From: Candidatus Moraniibacteriota bacterium
GTDB taxonomy: Bacteria; Patescibacteriota; Minisyncoccia; Moranbacterales; UBA1568
DNA length: 64,000 nt
Assembly (NCBI GenBank): GCA_052035095.1
Contig: JBPOHW010000004.1
Location: 23,527 to 87,526 of the forward strand
Reading direction: 5' to 3'
Shown here one piece after another: positions 8,845-60,537 of this stretch. The notes below the pieces were generated by a model. It saw nothing but the letters and a program-made list of their open reading frames with translations, made no database searches and was not told the DNA's origin. Numbering within the stretch: the first letter of the stretch is position 1; each line of letters opens with the position of its first letter. The position numbers and the translations under genes were made by a program.

Positions 8845-8939
8845 GTTGCCGAAACTGCAAAAAATATTTTTTCTCACATGCTCCTCGTTGGGCTCGGAGC
8901 AAGCTTTCGAAAAATTATTTTTTGCAGTTTCGGCGTGCA
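8845..8939 (+). repeat. Intergenic long-hairpin repeat element, copy 1 of 4 (GTTGCC-stem-loop-stem-GGCGTGCA)
   Basis: A ~25-bp stem (gccgaaactgcaaaaaatatttttt / aaaattattttttgcagtttcggc) with the conserved flanks GTTGCC...GGCGTGCA shared by the elements at 17482, 18542 and 21008. Located directly after a + strand gene stop. Confidence 0.8.
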
Positions 8940-17481: not shown

Positions 17482-17565
17482 GTTGCCTCGACCGAGAAAA
17501 AGAATTTTTCTCATATACGATTACGTAAGATTTCGAAAGATTCTTTTTCTCGGTCTCGGCGTGCA
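17482..17565 (+). repeat. Intergenic long-hairpin repeat element, copy 2 of 4
   Basis: Stem: gcctcgaccgagaaaaagaat / attctttttctcggtctcggc. Loop tcatatacgattacgtaagatttcgaaa, identical to copy 3. Ends with GGCGTGCA followed by a TAAAAAAT -10-like box. Confidence 0.8.
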
Positions 17566-18541: not shown

Positions 18542-18625
18542 GTTGCCGAGACTGCAAAAAAGAATTTTTCTCATATACGATTACGTAAGATTTCGAAAAA
18601 TTCTTTTTTGCAGTCTCGGCGTGCA
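18542..18625 (+). repeat. Intergenic long-hairpin repeat element, copy 3 of 4
   Basis: Perfect 25-bp stem (ccgagactgcaaaaaagaatttttc / gaaaaattcttttttgcagtctcgg) with the same loop as copy 2. Confidence 0.85.
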
Positions 18626-21007: not shown

Positions 21008-21101
21008 GTTGCCTCGACCAAGAAAAAGAATTTTTCTCACACACTCCTCCCGGGCTCGGAGCGAAGTTTCGAAAAATTCTTTTTCTTGGTCTCGGCGTGC
21101 A
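21008..21101 (+). repeat. Intergenic long-hairpin repeat element, copy 4 of 4
   Basis: Stem: cgaccaagaaaaagaatttttc / gaaaaattctttttcttggtctcg. Loop is similar to copy 1 (cactcctcccgggctcggagcg). Followed immediately by a TGATAGAAT extended -10-like box. Confidence 0.8.
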
Positions 21102-27075: not shown

Positions 27076-28590
27076 ATGATGGAAAGAATGCAAAATCTTC
27101 TGTGGTACGCCTTTGTGTTTCTCTTGCCGTGGCAGATGGTGTGGATTGTTCGGGAGACATTCGTCGGCGGGGAGAAGTGGCAGTACGCGACGATGGGGCT
27201 TTATGTGTCGGATGTGGCGCTTCTCGCGTGTGCTGTTTTCTTGTGTCTCGGCGCGTCGCGCGACGTGTGGCGGGGAATGTTTCGTGACGCGATTGTGTGG
27301 ATTTTTGTAGCGCTTCTTGCGTGGTTGCTTCTCTCGATAGCGTGGGCGATGGAAAAAAATATGGCGCTTCTCTCGGCGTGGCGTGTTTTTCTTGTGATGC
27401 TTACGTATGCGTGCGCGCGGTATGGCGGGGTTTCTTTTCGGAAGACACTTCTCGTGTTTCTCATTTCGATGACGCTTCAGGCGGGACTCGCGATTTCGCA
27501 GTGGGTTTCGCAATTTGTCTCCGCGTCGAGCCTTTTCGGTATCGCCGAGCATGATCCGTCGCGATGGGGGAGTTTTGTTTTGAAAACCGAGAGTGGACGG
27601 TTTCTGCGTGCCTACGGCGGATTCGAACATCCCAATGTCTTGGGCGGCGCGCTTGCGATTGCGACGCTTTTTGGTGTGTGGCTCTCCGCGACGGCGAAGG
27701 GTATTGTTGCGAGGATTGGCTTTCTGGGGATGACCATTATGTCGAGCTTCACCCTCGTGTTCACTTTTTCACGGAGCGCGTGGATGGGATTTGGTATCGG
27801 GATGAGCGTGTTGTCTCTTGGTTCGATATGGCGTTTGTGTGAGGTGTGTGTTTCGTCATTCCCGCGAAGGCGGGAATCCAGGCTCCACAAAATGAAAGAA
27901 TTTTTGAAGGGAAATTTTATTGAAACAATTCTCCGAAAAACTGACGCTCCCGGAAATCTTTCGAAGAAAGTTCGTTTCGATATGTCGGTAGTCCTGTGGT
28001 ACCTGGATTCCCGCCTTCGCGGGAATGACGGAAAGAAAGATTGGAATTGCTTGGAAAATTCTCAAAGGCTTGTTCGATATGTGGGCGCAGTATTTCTTAT
28101 ACTCCTCTCTTTCTGTATCGGATTTTTTCTCGTTCGCGATATCGCGATGAGTCGGTTTTCGGAAGAGACGCTCGCGCGCGAAGGGTCGCTCTCGGATCGC
28201 GCGGCATATATGCAACAGGCATTGGCTGTCATACGCGAACATCCGATACTCGGTGTCGGCGGCGGGAATTTTACGGCGTTTACGCAAGCTCGTTTTCCTG
28301 AGAGCGGAAAATTCGTCGGCGATTTTCAACCGGTGCATACGGTGCCGATATTGGTCTTTGCCGAGCTTGGCGCGGTCGGGTTTGTTCTTTTTGCGTCGCT
28401 TTTCGTTTTTGCCTTTCTTTGCGCGTGGCGAGAAAAAAATATGTTTGCCGGCATGATACTCTGCGCGCTTCTCTCGATGCTTTTTCTTGATCACTGGCTC
28501 TGGAGCGGACATTTCGGCGCGGTGTTTCTCGGGTTTGTGTTGGGAATGTGTAGCCGAAAAGTTTCAAATCTCGAATTTTTTGAAAAATAG
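27076..28590 (+). CDS. O-antigen ligase/polymerase-like (Wzy_C / WaaL family) membrane protein, interrupted in-frame by a palindromic element
   Basis: Multi-TM protein with Wzy_C-like core (FTFSRSAWMGFGIGMSV...) and a typical C-terminal region. The track start at 26968 is TTG; the ATG at 27076 (MMERMQNLLWYAF...) is more plausible. It contains the 178-bp inverted-repeat insertion at 27854..28031, translated without a stop. Confidence 0.65.
   Translation: MMERMQNLLWYAFVFLLPWQMVWIVRETFVGGEKWQYATMGLYVSDVALLACAVFLCLGASRDVWRGMFRDAIVWIFVALLAWLLLSIAWAMEKNMALLSAWRVFLVMLTYACARYGGVSFRKTLLVFLISMTLQAGLAISQWVSQFVSASSLFGIAEHDPSRWGSFVLKTESGRFLRAYGGFEHPNVLGGALAIATLFGVWLSATAKGIVARIGFLGMTIMSSFTLVFTFSRSAWMGFGIGMSVLSLGSIWRLCEVCVSSFPRRRESRLHKMKEFLKGNFIETILRKTDAPGNLSKKVRFDMSVVLWYLDSRLRGNDGKKDWNCLENSQRLVRYVGAVFLILLSFCIGFFLVRDIAMSRFSEETLAREGSLSDRAAYMQQALAVIREHPILGVGGGNFTAFTQARFPESGKFVGDFQPVHTVPILVFAELGAVGFVLFASLFVFAFLCAWREKNMFAGMILCALLSMLFLDHWLWSGHFGAVFLGFVLGMCSRKVSNLEFFEK
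27854..28031. mobile_element. MITE-like palindromic element (178 bp) with perfect 29-bp terminal inverted repeats, inserted in-frame in the O-antigen ligase gene
   Basis: Left TIR cgtcattcccgcgaaggcgggaatccagg equals the reverse complement of the right TIR cctggattcccgccttcgcgggaatgacg. Each TIR contains an ATTCCC-N8-GGGAAT sub-palindrome. The AT-rich ~120-bp core contrasts with the flanking GC content. Confidence 0.7.
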
Positions 28591-32792: not shown

Positions 32793-32979
32793 AAGAAATT
32801 TTGTATTCGGCACGTTCAAGAAATGCTCCGGGGCTTGGTAGTAGCGTCTGTTGGTTTTGGATGGAAATAACCTCCCAAAGAAGCTTTCGTTTGTGGTTTT
32901 CGTAGGTCTGCCCGCCGCTGCGTTAATTTCTTTCTCCCTGCCTTGCCGGCAGACAGGTTAGCCGAATACAAAATTTCTT
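32793..32979. ncRNA. Candidate structured RNA / non-autonomous element, copy A (conserved core closed by a 19-bp perfect stem)
   Basis: Arms aagaaattttgtattcggc / gccgaatacaaaatttctt enclose a core (acgttcaagaaatgctccggggcttggtag...tgatggaaataacctcccaaagaagctttcg) that is ~85% identical to 40316..40400. The arms differ from those of copy B yet remain perfectly complementary (covariation). Strand undetermined. Confidence 0.4.
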
Positions 32980-32992
32980 CTTTTGTACTTCT

Positions 32993-34075
32993 TTATTCTT
33001 CGGATATCTTCATTCCATCCTCGAGTGTCCCCGTGCTTTCTATGATGACAGCGGCGTTTTCCGGAATATCGGCGGAGACGATGCCGGTTTCGCCGGAGAC
33101 GATGATGGAGGTGGCGGATATTTTCTTGGCTTTTTCGTTTTCCGCTACGAAGAAGAACGAGCCCTCTTGGTTGGTGGTGATGGCGGAGAGGGGGAGGAAG
33201 AATGAGGAGGCTTCAGATGCGATTTGGCGAATTTCTATGATGGCGCTCCCGATGGTGCCGGAGGGGATGGAGTCTTTTTCGAGGCGCGCCTCAATGGGGA
33301 ATTTGCCGGTTGCCGGATCGGCGTGCGCGGCGATTGAGGTGACGTGTGCCGTTTTCTCCCGGTTTTCTTGGAGGAGGATTCGCACGGAATCACCAATCGC
33401 GAGCGAGTCGCGAACGCGTTCCGATACTTGGAAGCGCGCCTTTGGAGCGCTTCCTGTGGCGATCTTCGCGAGCATGGTGCCCGGCGTGACGGAGCTTCCG
33501 ACGTTGACGTATTTTTCCGAGATGATGCCGGAGAGAGGCGCGCGGACGGTGGAAGCATCGAGCGCATTGGCGAGGGCTATCTCGGCTTCTTCGAGACGGA
33601 GTCGCGCGAGGTCGCGGTCGAGATAACTCTCTTTGTTGGTGTTCTTCTCGGCGAGGCGTTTCGCTTCTTTGTAGGATTTCCGCGCGGAAGAGACGGCGAT
33701 TTCGGCTTGTCGAATCGCTTCCGATCGGATGCCGCTCTTTGAGAGTATGGAACCGTTGGGATCGGTGATGCGGACGAGTGTGGCGCCCTGCCTGATAGAA
33801 CTTCCCACCTCGAAGCTTGCCGAGGCTATCGTGCCGGAAGTTTCCGCCGTGATCACGGTTTCATTGTCGGCGACAATGACGACGGGGAGACGTTCTTCGG
33901 ACGTTATGCTTTTCAAATCGCCCGCTTTTTTGACCGAGACTTCGAGGGCACGCTCGTCCGCTCCCGCTTCACTCGGTGTTTGTGCGGATTCGTTTTTCCT
34001 TGCGGCAAAGTACCAAAGACCGAAGAGTCCGAGGAGTATAGCCGCGAGAATGAGCGCTGTTTTGGTGCGTATCAT
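32993..34075 (-). CDS. RND efflux periplasmic adaptor (membrane fusion protein, HlyD/AcrA-like)
   Basis: N-terminal TM anchor, coiled-coil hairpin region (RLRLEEAEIALANA...), and beta-barrel/MP domains. Lies upstream of the RND permease on the same strand. Confidence 0.8.
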   Translation of the reverse strand: MIRTKTALILAAILLGLFGLWYFAARKNESAQTPSEAGADERALEVSVKKAGDLKSITSEERLPVVIVADNETVITAETSGTIASASFEVGSSIRQGATLVRITDPNGSILSKSGIRSEAIRQAEIAVSSARKSYKEAKRLAEKNTNKESYLDRDLARLRLEEAEIALANALDASTVRAPLSGIISEKYVNVGSSVTPGTMLAKIATGSAPKARFQVSERVRDSLAIGDSVRILLQENREKTAHVTSIAAHADPATGKFPIEARLEKDSIPSGTIGSAIIEIRQIASEASSFFLPLSAITTNQEGSFFFVAENEKAKKISATSIIVSGETGIVSADIPENAAVIIESTGTLEDGMKISEE

Positions 34076-34171
34076 AGGGAATTGTATTCAAATGAGCAAT
34101 TCGTCAATTTTCCTTGAAAAAGAGAGAGATGTCAAGGCTTGTGGGAAGGATTTTTCTGTGTCAACATTGAA

Positions 34172-37024
34172 ATGTTTCCTGATTTGGTACAAATAGAGCA
34201 TTTTATGGGGATGTTGTGGAAGTTTCTTCGGATGTATTGGGAAGAATGCGCCCTTCTGGTGGCGCTTGTTTTTGCTGTGGGAATTCTTTTGATTCCACAA
34301 AGAACTATTCTTTATTTCTCTTGGCTGTACGTGTCTTTTGTGGCCATTGGTATTGTTTATTCTGTGCGGAAGAAGTTTCAAGAAAGCGTGAAAGAAGCAG
34401 AATGGGGAGAACAAAAAAGACGAAAAGATTCGCCAACATCAATTTTTCTTGATGATAAAGAAATAGAGGATGAAAAACATGATGTTCTTGGCATTGCGGA
34501 AGATGCCAAGCATTTCGGGGAACAGGTTTTGAATGGCGGCGCCGATAATGCCATGATTTTTGGTTTGGATGCGGCGTGGGGGAGTGGGAAGTCGAGTTTT
34601 CTCAACCTCTCTAAGAAACAGGTTTGGGAAACAAAAGAAAACAAAGAAAAGGTTGCGGTCTTTACTTTTCGACCGATACTTTTTGACGCGCGCAAACAGG
34701 ATATTGCGGAGATTTTTATTCGCGAGTTTTTTTCTTTTCTCAAGGAGGAAAGAATGCTTTCCAGAAGGTTGGAAAGCGATAGATGGAAACTTGTGCGCTT
34801 AATAAGTGATGTTTCGATGGGAGGCGATCTTTTTGGTATACGATTTCGCGTTCCTCAAGAATCTTTGGATGAAGTACTCGAGCGAATTCGAAATGAAATC
34901 AAAAAGCTTCCCAAGAAGATCATTGTCATTGTTGACGATCTCGACCGATTGTATGTGGAAGAAGTGAAGGCGATTCTCGGTGTGGTGCGAAATATCTTTT
35001 TTATTCCAAAGATTACTTTTGTTCTGTGCTACGACACGAGCAATATCAATAGTTTTGAATTTCAGAAAAAAGTGGTTCACACCGAATCCGAATCATACGC
35101 CACCTCAAAAGATGATGATGTCAAAAGAAAATTGTATTCTCGTGCTGATCACGAACCCGATAGCCAAAGAATAAACGCCTATCTCGAGAAAATTGTGCAG
35201 GTCAAAAAAACGCTCATTCCCGATAGGGATAAGCTATGGAATTTTTTCGAAAAGAAAGTGAGGGACTATTTTTCCGATGCAGACCTCGTGAATTGCGAGA
35301 CTTTTATTGAAGGAATCAAACCTTTTTTTCAAGAGGAATGCTATCCAAAGTATGCCCCCTACTTGGGGGATATCCGGAAAATAAAAAGAATTCTCAACTT
35401 TATTCGTATTTCCAGATTTCTCAAGTTAATGAAAAAAGACATGCGTGGTCGAGATATTAGTTCGAAATATCTTTTTCAGTTTATTTTGATATATATCAAT
35501 TACCCGCACATTTTTCGAAAAATTTATATTGAGGAAACAAGCGGATCCTCGGGATTCTTTTCTGTTATTTATTGTGATAAGGATAAAGAAGATTGTACTC
35601 CTGCGGGTTTCAAGAATTCGTCACAGTTTCTTGATTTTCTCAAGACGGTTTCTGAAGAACAGAGATTTTTGCTTGAAGAATTATTTCGTGTGCCGATATT
35701 TGATAAATCTGAAATTTTTGAGAGAAGGCAATACGAGGAAGAAATGGAGAAGCCTAAATTTCAGAGATATTCCCCCCTTTTTAATGGGGGATACTTTTCT
35801 CGGATAAACCTGAGGGATTATCTCGAGATTGTTTATGAGGGAAAGTCTATTGACATTTGGTTGCATGATAATTTTCATATCAATAAAATTAAGGAATTGG
35901 AAAATCGGAGTGTTCAAGACATATTTAATGCAACGCCGGAGTATGGTGCGGATATTGGTGAAAAATCTCGCGATATGTTTTTTGGAAAATTGCGGACTAA
36001 AGACGTTCCATTTTCTTCCGCTGAAAAGGTCATCGAATATATCACTCACAATTTGTCTCATTATTCGATGATCAGCGAATTTTCGGGAGTGTATGAGGGA
36101 ATTCGCGCTGGGCTGGTATATCGATTGCTATGGATGCTCGAGCTTCGAGGGTGGGAGGATGAAAAGAGGGAATCATACGAAAATACCGATGAGAATATCC
36201 GAGTTCTCGCGGAGAAAATTTTGGGGAATGAGCAATATCCATCACTGGTGAATACACTTTTTGATTCTGGCGGCAACCCGATTCTCGCGGTCAATGATGC
36301 GACCAAACTCATATACGCGTGCACTGGTACAAGATCAAGTTCTCTTTTCAATGTTCGCCGATCACTTGAAAACTATGCCAAAGAACATTCGATCGATGTG
36401 ATGGAGGCTCTGTCGCGAAAAGCATTTTTGTTTTTCCATAAGCGCATCATTTCCGAGAAGAAGAATTTTCTTCGGGATATCGCCGATATGGACGAGGCGC
36501 TTCTCTTGGGTGATTTCTCGGAGGCTATTTGGAAAAAATTTGAGGAAAAGAAAGATGGTCTTGAAGAGGAGGTGGCAAAAATAAAAAACAGCCTTGCTTC
36601 CGCGCTCTTGTTTCGGTTTGCGCGCGATGAGGAGCGATCAATGGGGAAGTATCTCTTTGATGATACGAAGAAAATATCGGAAGTTATGCGAGAGTATCTT
36701 CTTGAGATATGTTTCAACGTTGATGCGGATATGCGAAACGCGGAACTTTTTCTGAATTTCGCACTAGCGTCTTTCGGCGATGAATCAACCGGGTTTCAAG
36801 AGTGGGTTCCGGATGTTTCTCTTTTGGAAAAAACCCTCGGTCCTGATCGTTTGCGGAGCTATTGGCTGGAGAGGGGCGAAGTCATCAAAAAATGCGGGCG
36901 CTCGCTCGCACTCGCCTCGCCGGATAAAAAAGTGGTGACGTATAACTATGTCGCCACCTACCGGAAAGACATGGAGAAACTTTTTGAGAAACTCGATGAG
37001 CGGTTTTTGAAGGAAGGAGAGTAG
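34172..37024 (+). CDS. KAP-family P-loop NTPase with N-terminal transmembrane segment and long C-terminal region (~950 aa); AT-rich gene
   Basis: KAP-type Walker A GLDAAWGSGKSSFLN. Walker B hhhhDDLDR (IIVIVDDLDRL). Two TM helices precede the P-loop. The start is uncertain: the track gives TTG 34139; ATGs occur at 34172, 34205 and 34211. GC is markedly lower than in the surrounding genes. Confidence 0.65.
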   Translation: MFPDLVQIEHFMGMLWKFLRMYWEECALLVALVFAVGILLIPQRTILYFSWLYVSFVAIGIVYSVRKKFQESVKEAEWGEQKRRKDSPTSIFLDDKEIEDEKHDVLGIAEDAKHFGEQVLNGGADNAMIFGLDAAWGSGKSSFLNLSKKQVWETKENKEKVAVFTFRPILFDARKQDIAEIFIREFFSFLKEERMLSRRLESDRWKLVRLISDVSMGGDLFGIRFRVPQESLDEVLERIRNEIKKLPKKIIVIVDDLDRLYVEEVKAILGVVRNIFFIPKITFVLCYDTSNINSFEFQKKVVHTESESYATSKDDDVKRKLYSRADHEPDSQRINAYLEKIVQVKKTLIPDRDKLWNFFEKKVRDYFSDADLVNCETFIEGIKPFFQEECYPKYAPYLGDIRKIKRILNFIRISRFLKLMKKDMRGRDISSKYLFQFILIYINYPHIFRKIYIEETSGSSGFFSVIYCDKDKEDCTPAGFKNSSQFLDFLKTVSEEQRFLLEELFRVPIFDKSEIFERRQYEEEMEKPKFQRYSPLFNGGYFSRINLRDYLEIVYEGKSIDIWLHDNFHINKIKELENRSVQDIFNATPEYGADIGEKSRDMFFGKLRTKDVPFSSAEKVIEYITHNLSHYSMISEFSGVYEGIRAGLVYRLLWMLELRGWEDEKRESYENTDENIRVLAEKILGNEQYPSLVNTLFDSGGNPILAVNDATKLIYACTGTRSSSLFNVRRSLENYAKEHSIDVMEALSRKAFLFFHKRIISEKKNFLRDIADMDEALLLGDFSEAIWKKFEEKKDGLEEEVAKIKNSLASALLFRFARDEERSMGKYLFDDTKKISEVMREYLLEICFNVDADMRNAELFLNFALASFGDESTGFQEWVPDVSLLEKTLGPDRLRSYWLERGEVIKKCGRSLALASPDKKVVTYNYVATYRKDMEKLFEKLDERFLKEGE

Positions 37025-40295: not shown

Positions 40296-40464
40296 TCCGA
40301 ACTTTCGTATTTGTCACGTTCAGGAAATAGCTTCGGAGCTTGGTAGGTGAGTTTTTTCGTTACTGATGGAAATAACCTCCCAAAGAAACTTTCGCTTCAA
40401 GTATATTTGAGTTTGCTCGCTCCTCCGTGTATTTCCTTCTCTTAGACAAATACGAAAGTTCGGA
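40296..40464. ncRNA. Candidate structured RNA / non-autonomous element, copy B (conserved core closed by a 20-bp perfect stem)
   Basis: Arms tccgaactttcgtatttgtc / gacaaatacgaaagttcgga. Core shares acgttcaRgaaatRgcttcggRgcttggtag...tgatggaaataacctcccaaagaaRctttcg with copy A. Confidence 0.4.
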
Positions 40465-54971: not shown

Positions 54972-55090
54972 AGGACGTACGCGTTTGGCGCAGTTCGAGG
55001 AAAACGCGAGGAACGGAGTAAGCTGTATACGCCATACAGCGTCAAGTACCGGAGCATTTGACGAAGAAATGCGCCAAACGCGTACGTCCT
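54972..55090. promoter_or_regulatory. Long inverted repeat (21-bp perfect arms, 77-nt interior with a nested hairpin) in the nrdD upstream/leader region
   Basis: aggacgtacgcgtttggcgca ... tgcgccaaacgcgtacgtcct, with an internal gctgtatacgccatacagc hairpin. Lies 22–140 nt upstream of the nrdD start, between divergent genes. Confidence 0.5.
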
Positions 55091-60488: not shown

Positions 60489-60537
60489 CAAAACACGTCA
60501 ACTTTGCGCGACCGCGCAAAGTTGACGTGTTTTTTTG
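60489..60537. terminator. Bidirectional rho-independent terminator (perfect 18-bp stem)
   Basis: AAAACACGTCAACTTTGCGCG-ACC-GCGCAAAGTTGACGTGTTTTTTT between convergent genes. Confidence 0.7.

Follow-up and report, generated by a model that had tools for sequence, protein, structure and literature searches.

A paired hairpin element of the Neisseria Transformation Sequence type lying in frame within a Wzy_C/WaaL-like gene of Candidatus Moranbacteria

We analysed a 64-kb stretch of contig JBPOHW010000004.1 from a Candidatus Moraniibacteriota bacterium (hereafter, the window), to which everything said here of the host genome is confined, and focused on a palindromic element located within a gene for a Wzy_C/WaaL-like membrane protein. 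The 177-bp segment at positions 27854–28030 is very probably a non-autonomous hairpin element resembling MITEs (transposable elements of miniature size with inverted repeats), in which two inverted copies of the Neisseria Transformation Sequence (NTS) enclose an AT-rich spacer, inserted in frame in the gene (Table 1). Probably, the insert lengthens a short basic inter-helix loop of the Candidatus Moranbacteria (Patescibacteria) protein by 59 residues. The GIY-YIG nuclease Ssn is put forward as the mobilising enzyme only tentatively, with a chance that we place somewhat below even.

Hairpin anatomy and identity of the arms

The element is bounded by inverted repeats at 27854–27882 and 28002–28030 (each CGTCATTCCCGCGAAGGCGGGAATCCAGG), which are fully complementary over 29 nt, as stated in the initial annotation of this DNA, and both of which contain the palindrome ATTCCC-N8-GGGAAT described there. 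The same annotation gave the unit a length of 178 bp (27854–28031); its end was found instead at 28030, giving 177 bp, or 59 codons; with 178 bp the reading frame would not be kept. A 20-nt core of the arm had two matches in the window, compared with 0.03 expected from shuffled sequence, and the only two matches to the degenerate Ssn-related motif (SRM) were the arms themselves (0.43 expected from shuffles). Each arm agreed with the NTS consensus CGTCATTCCCGCGMAVGCGGGAATCYRG and with the SRM at 28 of 28 positions, which goes beyond the resemblance to the neisserial repeat dRS3 noted initially, the NTS consensus containing dRS3.

Both arms read CGTC / ATTCCCGC / GAAG / GCGGGAAT / CCA and thus fall in the CGTC-1 class of repetitive extragenic palindromes (REPs), which Di Nocera et al. 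(2013, PMC3733652) define by a CGTC or TGTC tag, an 8-bp stem with AT at its start, a loop of 4 nt, and a CCA tail. Inverted with respect to each other and with the tags outside, they constitute an “HH dimer”, the predominant arrangement of the class (PMC3733652). The same study equated CGTC-1 with neisserial dRS3 and R. conorii RPE-6, counted RPE-6 and RPE-4 of Rickettsia among the CGTC REPs, reported intragenic copies, and, for CGTC REPs, found no association with a tyrosine transposase (PMC3733652). The small GIY-YIG nuclease SsnA, in turn, has NTS as its target in single-strand DNA (Chenal et al., Nat Commun 2025, PMC11893778); it binds the sequence in single-strand form only, cutting a few bases upstream. 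The ssn genes, encoding small GIY-YIG proteins of the cd10448 type, are often flanked by the motif, and NTS-ssnA-NTS was noted to be built like an insertion sequence; mobility of such units was raised there as a hypothesis and was not tested (PMC11893778). The arms are NTS, i.e., the same repeat as dRS3, the CGTC-1 REP, and RPE-6, and because CGTC-1 was equated with RPE-6 (PMC3733652), the analogy with Rickettsia palindromic elements drawn initially turns out to be a family relationship.

The whole unit folds as one long hairpin (z = -9.7 as RNA and -8.9 as DNA). The spacer is partly self-complementary, the 81-nt hairpin arms being 74% complementary overall; under DNA parameters the interior palindrome is weak both here and in the homologous element of locus L003 (see below), stability coming mostly from the terminal arms. 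The outermost 10–20 nt of the spacer on each side extend the terminal repeat that is common to metagenomic copies. The interior is AT-rich, as the initial annotation had it, with a GC content of 0.36 compared with 0.52 for the window. With terminal inverted repeats, small size, and no coding capacity of its own, the element has the attributes of a classical MITE. No target-site duplication was found at the window copy, and Rfam returned no match at gathering thresholds over the whole window.

Across the element, only frame +2, in which the gene is read, and frame -2 are fully open among the six. The earlier statement that no stop occurs on either strand holds for these two frames and fails for the antisense ORF (open reading frame) at 27856–28512, which runs through the element in frame -1 as far as a TGA in the left arm. 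A minus-strand gene was ruled out, this ORF, which stops in the left arm, being what GC skew in a coding region commonly produces on the opposite strand. In two independent JGI assemblies (L317 and L318), the element was identical, and the gene had eight substitutions, none of them in or near it; the agreement of the three independent assemblies rules out an assembly artefact. As a minor observation, TTCGATATG(G/T)(C/G)G occurs three times, before, inside, and after the element (27822–27834, 27976–27988, and 28073–28085), in differing frames and possibly by chance.

Host gene and evidence for insertion

The host protein is a member of the Wzy_C/WaaL-like family, as seen in its Pfam PF04932 match, its fold, and its Arg/Arg/His residues. 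The WaaL structure 7TPG was the best hit both by profile and by fold (Foldseek), and R360, R375, and H421 were invariant in 108 sequences. An AlphaFold model computed from an alignment of 108 homologues had a mean predicted local distance difference test score (pLDDT) of 90 and a predicted template-modelling score (pTM) of 0.89. The mechanically called ORF begins at TTG 26968, upstream of ATG 27076. In Candidatus Moranbacteria/Moraniibacteriota and further Patescibacteria, relatives of the gene carry the annotation O-antigen ligase family; to our knowledge, Patescibacteria are not known to make lipopolysaccharide, and the ligase label is therefore a family name only. The bipA-Wzy_C neighbourhood is kept in L003, L004, and L317, and an AcrB-type gene lies downstream of the host gene in L002, L004, and L317.

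Insertion in the Wzy_C ORF, as initially proposed, is borne out by the orthologues. The state of the loop was scored in an alignment of 27 of them, of which 13 have a short loop of 9–24 residues at the position of the insert, and the DNA of such empty sites was read directly in L002, L007, and L008. The PF04932 match (gathering score, 31.7 bits) spans profile positions 36–149 with 51.7 bits when the insert is present and positions 3–149 with 70.7 bits after removal of the 59 residues; the empty-site orthologues P0007 and P0009 show the same full match as the insert-deleted protein. The insert sits between two long helices (residues 233–260 and 323–352), and the pLDDT of the model falls to 50–63 only over residues ~261–322, being 90 or more elsewhere. 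No Pfam match was obtained for the 59-residue peptide itself. A palindromic repeat thus lies in frame inside an ORF that has orthologues without it, the situation by which Rickettsia palindromic elements are recognised.

The proposed in-frame placement agrees with the host ORF, which keeps every family-invariant residue. Regarding the claim that the element is translated within the gene, the intact ORF was confirmed; because the invariant residues are retained as well and two divergent lineages keep frame and length (see below), we infer that the 59 residues are translated and tolerated, and the element-encoded peptides ESRLHKMKEFLK and VRFDMSVVLWYLDSR would be candidate marks of a translated insert.

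The sidedness of the loop was judged by homology and charge. The insert-bearing loop is net basic (20 Lys + Arg versus 10 Asp + Glu), and its counterpart in 7TPG is the short basic turn RYRRFSVR. One helix after it, loop 354–430 carries R360, R375, and H421 and aligns with the Arg/His-bearing loop of WaaL, which is periplasmic. Since it is basic and lies one helix before this conserved Arg/Arg/His loop, the insert loop is most likely cytoplasmic, contrary to the periplasmic or surface position suggested initially; the charge and the position relative to the conserved catalytic loop speak against a periplasmic location.

Alleles of the interrupted loop

The initial annotation had named presence of the same segment in orthologues as a sign of ancestry. 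Its absence from nearly half of the aligned orthologues (13 of 27) speaks for insertion, but a homologous tags-outward pair occupies the same position in two distant orthologues, P0006 (L003, the complete Moraniibacteriota genome CP064989) and P0004 (L005); the event is therefore old or site-specific and not private to the window genome. At 177 bp each, the elements of the window and L003 align without gaps, with essentially perfect arms and interiors that differ at ~40–50% of positions. In the P0004 allele (L005, ~1095–1140), a 21-bp palindrome, CATGCCTACCGGCAGGCAGGC, is nested in the 4-nt loop of the right NTS, and P0017 (L006, ~2090–2140) corresponds to the P0004 allele minus the interior between the two ATTCCC motifs, forming one enlarged in-frame hairpin. 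A second tags-outward NTS pair of 130 bp is found in CP064989 directly upstream of the Wzy_C start (L003, 9867–9996). Separately, the N-termini of several orthologues have been extended by gene callers through the upstream NTS pair, giving peptides such as GNGCYAGAM and AGMTKGW.

Ten other orthologues, including those of L001, L217, L004, and L218 (in frame), carry an unrelated hairpin at the same loop, here called family 2. Its layout is GTTGCC-...AAAAAGAATTTTTC...-GAAAAATTCTTTTT...-GGCGTGCA, with arms of ~26 nt (GCC(G/T)(A/C)GAC..AAAAAGAATTTTTC), outer flanks that are conserved (GTTGCC...GGCGTGCA), and an inner loop of either of two kinds. Family 2 had no Rfam match, and its intergenic copies are listed in Table 1. 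The spacer of the NTS element showed marginal colinear matches to both arms of family 2 (p ~0.01).

The loop lies in a segment that is hypervariable among orthologues, the boundaries of which were taken from sliding-window identity and are approximate (within ~15 bp). The window gene is 90–98% identical to that of L001, falling to 35–55% across ~27790–28105; compared with L004, it is 75–100% identical (mostly 82–97%) outside this segment and 35–55% identical across it, and L003 and L005 are 58–79% identical to the window within it. Another explanation, which we consider possible but hold with reserve, is that alleles of the ~315-bp region are exchanged as a cassette, the NTS pair and its flanks having come by homologous recombination from another Moranbacteria strain. 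The NTS hairpins may then be recombination or transformation-control signals, as proposed for Neisseria, in which genes adjacent to dRS3/NTS are of raised diversity and NTS modulates transformation (PMC11893778). Such exchange is favoured by the restriction of the divergence from L001 to this region, by insert types that are at odds with the gene tree (simple neighbour-joining), by P0023, which is a mosaic of two lineages, and by the coexistence of the NTS allele (L318) and the family 2 allele (L001) in a single metagenome sample (JGI 3300055001). However, a closely matching donor was not found, L003 and L005 reaching only the identities given above, and exchange accounts for the distribution of the element, not for its first arrival in the loop. 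For this reason, it complements the insertion model, and cassette exchange probably contributes to the distribution of the element.

Table 1. Coordinates of the element, its parts, the host gene, and related features in the window
Feature	Position	Strand	Description
Whole element	27854..28030	+	177-bp head-to-head (tags outward) NTS / CGTC-1 REP hairpin pair with AT-rich spacer; host residues ~260-319
Left NTS unit	27854..27881	+	28/28 to CGTCATTCCCGCGMAVGCGGGAATCYRG and SRM pattern; CGTC-1 REP architecture
Left NTS, tag	27854..27857	+	CGTC
Left NTS, first stem strand	27858..27865	+	ATTCCCGC
Left NTS, loop	27866..27869	+	GAAG
Left NTS, second stem strand	27870..27877	+	GCGGGAAT
Left NTS, tail	27878..27880	+	CCA, then G
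Spacer	27882..28002	.	121 bp; core 27883-28001, GC ~0.36
Right NTS unit	28003..28030	-	Same 28-mer as left unit, on minus strand
Host gene	27076..28590	+	Wzy_C / WaaL-like polytopic membrane protein, 504 aa from ATG 27076
Hypervariable segment	27790..28105	+	~315 bp; end of preceding helix, loop, and most of following helix
Family 2 intergenic copies	8848-8934, 17485-17560, 18545-18620, 21011-21096		Each just downstream of a plus-strand ORF

Related copies and GIY-YIG units

The initial annotation also raised the question of whether the terminal repeat occurs elsewhere, and it was found widely in genomes and metagenomes. The collections were scanned for exact matches only, and the counts below were taken among the matches listed. 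An exact 26-mer of the arm was present in 88 stretches of IMG/VR contigs among the matches listed, and an exact 24-mer was present in at least 120 stretches of species-representative genomes. The hosts of the 24-mer, among the matches listed, were Proteobacteria, Bacteroidota, Chloroflexota, Planctomycetota, Patescibacteria, and Rickettsia/Tisiphia endosymbionts, the Patescibacteria being represented by Moraniibacteriota, Magasanikiibacteriota, Falkowbacteria, Uhrbacteria, and Paceibacterota. The genome loci listed contained 59 tags-outward and 11 tags-inward pairs, and 91 of their 230 units were solo.

When metagenomes were scanned with the arm plus adjoining spacer sequence (GAAGGCGGGAATCCAGRYWCCAC), 97 stretches were retrieved among the matches listed, with 73 tags-outward versus 2 tags-inward pairs. 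Their lengths cluster at 151–159 and 165–171 bp, their interiors are AT-rich (median GC, 0.27) with recurring spacer subfamilies, and several contigs hold 2–4 copies each. No base is repeated across the ends, i.e., there is no target-site duplication, in 66 of the 73 related pairs. None of the ~70 metagenomic pairs lay in a long ORF, the only copies so placed being those in the Wzy_C genes of the window and L003. Among the metagenomic contigs with 150–171-bp copies, only L262 and L268 reach 77% nucleotide identity to the window.

Seven longer units of 399–423 bp (L237, L257, L270, L275, L276, L304, and L310) have an interior made up of one ~97-aa ORF with a Pfam GIY-YIG match (PF01541). The closest named relatives of the encoded protein belong to Moraniibacteriota and other Patescibacteria, the nearest (86% identity) being from the Candidatus Moraniibacteriota metagenome-assembled genome (MAG) GCA_049304095.1. 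The protein is encoded on four contigs of this MAG, and in one locus (L316, 2433–2840; 408 bp), the GIY-YIG gene (2501–2794) lies between the same inverted NTS ends. A 233-bp copy (L269, 3065–3297) is an internal deletion of the ~400-bp GIY-YIG unit, and the 169–171-bp class retains a 41-nt leader of that unit. Some of the 150–171-bp copies are deletion derivatives of the ~408-bp NTS-GIY-YIG-NTS unit. The GIY-YIG protein family is itself very large, with 7995 of 8000 scored candidates at E <= 1e-10.

Proposed origin and mobilisation of the element

Under the insertion reading, the element would have arrived as one unit and would have been kept because the loop, a short cytoplasmic connector, is permissive. 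An Ssn-type GIY-YIG nuclease encoded elsewhere may cut single-strand DNA, spreading copies and holding their ends constant; for a tags-outward pair, the cut position of SsnA would fall on opposite strands, a little beyond each of the two ends. Recombination or repair provoked at the hairpins could account for the local hypervariability, as has been suggested for dRS3-adjacent genes of Neisseria.

Several observations weigh against this reading. For Ssn, the activity demonstrated is that of a nuclease and not that of a transposase. The 64-kb window gave no ssn homologue by tblastn and holds only one NTS pair; L003 (21.5 kb) holds two. By BLAST against more than 300 fetched loci, the spacer had no relative beyond the terminal 35–49 nt, and its alignment with the ends of ssn units was no better than that of shuffles; without such similarity, descent of the window copy from an ssn unit would follow by analogy only and is not claimed here. 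The element shared in position with P0004 and P0006 may mean an ancient event or exchange by recombination, not recent transposition. Translation of the insert is a prediction from the open frame. Moreover, if exactly the 177 bp are taken out, an in-frame TGA arises at the junction, which means that the original junction is not recoverable or that the boundaries are off by a base or two, and that a precise loss at present would truncate the protein. Simple precise excision as a route to the ancestral state was ruled out by this TGA.

It is improbable that the 177-bp unit never moved whole and that two solo NTS hairpins were inserted on either side of a resident loop sequence, possibly a degraded family 2. 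The abundance of solo units in the genome loci, the spacer unrelated to any other copy, and its weak colinear similarity to both family 2 arms are what such a history would leave. However, this similarity is marginal, tags-outward pairs of similar size dominate the related metagenomic contigs (73 versus 2), and the 10–20 nt beyond each NTS are also inverted repeats common to those copies; the equal length and gapless alignment of the window and L003 elements likewise argue for arrival of the pair as one unit.

Mobilisation of the element as a REPIN by RAYT, the IS200/IS605-like HUH transposase of the tyrosine type that serves GTAG-tagged REPs, is highly improbable. The anatomy is the same (two inverted REPs in one hairpin, a tetranucleotide tag, and no target-site duplication), but the tag is CGTC and not GTAG, CGTC REPs are those found without a tyrosine transposase (PMC3733652), and the gene between such ends is a GIY-YIG nuclease in L316 as well as in all seven long units; no scan of the window for RAYT was made. 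Equally hard to credit is a reading of the segment as native and functional in the protein, or as adaptively added, instead of as selfish DNA: the frame is open and the length is equal in two lineages whose spacers differ by ~40–50%, which suggests selection at least against disruption, but the segment is missing from the 13 short-loop orthologues, including members of the same clade, its DNA ends are an exact copy of a cross-phylum repeat, its peptide is without a Pfam match and modelled at low confidence, and sister genes hold unrelated hairpin DNA at the same spot.

Comparison with known repeat systems and implications

The insertion of an NTS hairpin pair can be compared with five published systems. 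Both arms are exact to the 28-nt NTS and share its design of a hairpin plus an oriented flank, and NTS-gene-NTS units encoding a ~97-aa GIY-YIG protein between the same ends occur in related contigs and in a Moraniibacteriota MAG. In contrast, the description of the NTS/Ssn system makes no mention of Patescibacteria, intragenic copies, or MITE-like deletion derivatives (PMC11893778), the window has no ssn, and its NTS density is 2 per 64 kb compared with hundreds in pathogenic Neisseria. The CGTC-1 HH dimers share the tag, the 8-bp stem starting with AT, the 4-nt loop, the CCA tail, the tags-outward pairing, and intragenic copies; they differ in having spacers of usually 20–100 bp, whereas the present one is ~121 bp, and the host phylum lies outside the five listed in the 2013 study, which found no enzyme associated with them (PMC3733652).

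As in the Rickettsia palindromic elements, of which RPE-1 was reportedly described in Rickettsia by Ogata et al. in 2000, a selfish palindrome lies in frame in a protein gene and is apparently tolerated. The equivalence with RPE-6 is that given in PMC3733652; the host here is a free-living or epibiotic bacterium of the Candidate Phyla Radiation and not obligately intracellular, and intragenic copies look rare (0 of ~70 metagenomic pairs), whereas they are many in Rickettsia. REPINs are likewise non-autonomous pairs of inverted REPs in one long hairpin without target-site duplication, differing in the GTAG tag and in an HUH tyrosine transposase in place of the GIY-YIG nuclease. Finally, classical MITEs such as the neisserial Correia element and Coxiella QMITE1/2 are also small, with terminal inverted repeats and an AT-rich core, are present in many copies in related genomes, and have longer, gene-carrying relatives that share their ends; here, by contrast, a target-site duplication is lacking, each end is a hairpin in itself, and the putative parent encodes a nuclease rather than a known transposase.

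The repeat, its pairing, its intragenic occurrence, and its nuclease partner are already published. New here are the host phylum, the in-frame Wzy_C case, the deletion series that joins MITE-like pairs to ssn units, and the hot spot of two hairpin families; the literature searched contained no link between Patescibacteria and REP or MITE elements. The NTS/Ssn repeat system, biochemically characterised only in 2025, is thereby extended to the Candidate Phyla Radiation. To judge from the reading frame, the window gene may be a clean case from nature of a polytopic membrane enzyme that tolerates 59 residues encoded by a hairpin. The ~400-bp NTS-GIY-YIG-NTS units with their graded internal-deletion copies are what present or past mobility of Ssn units would be expected to leave, and the loop taken by two unrelated hairpin families, hypervariable among strains with 93–98% identity elsewhere, is a tractable locus for studying hairpin-promoted local diversification; these two findings are potentially more useful than the element itself. 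For annotation, peptides like SFPRRRES..., VIPAKAGIQ..., and ...LRGNDG in predicted proteins are a warning of repeat-derived sequence.

A broader interpretation, which we offer as speculation and think rather unlikely in full, is that NTS-ssn-NTS units are active mobile elements with a mechanism of a new kind, driven by a ~97-aa GIY-YIG single-strand DNA nuclease, not by a DDE or HUH transposase, and spawn MITE-like deletion derivatives, the window copy among them. In Moranbacteria, the hairpins might make one cytoplasmic loop of a surface-glycan enzyme gene a recurrent site of landing and recombination, yielding alleles that coexist in one community.

Other features of the window

A low-GC stretch at 34001–36000 (0.39 versus ~0.52) lies inside a 961-aa ORF (34139–37024). 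Three further inverted repeats were observed: 32793–32979, with perfect 19-nt arms 149 nt apart; 40296–40464, with perfect 20-nt arms 129 nt apart; and 54972–55090, with 25-nt arms 69 nt apart. A perfect 21-nt palindrome is present at 60490–60533.

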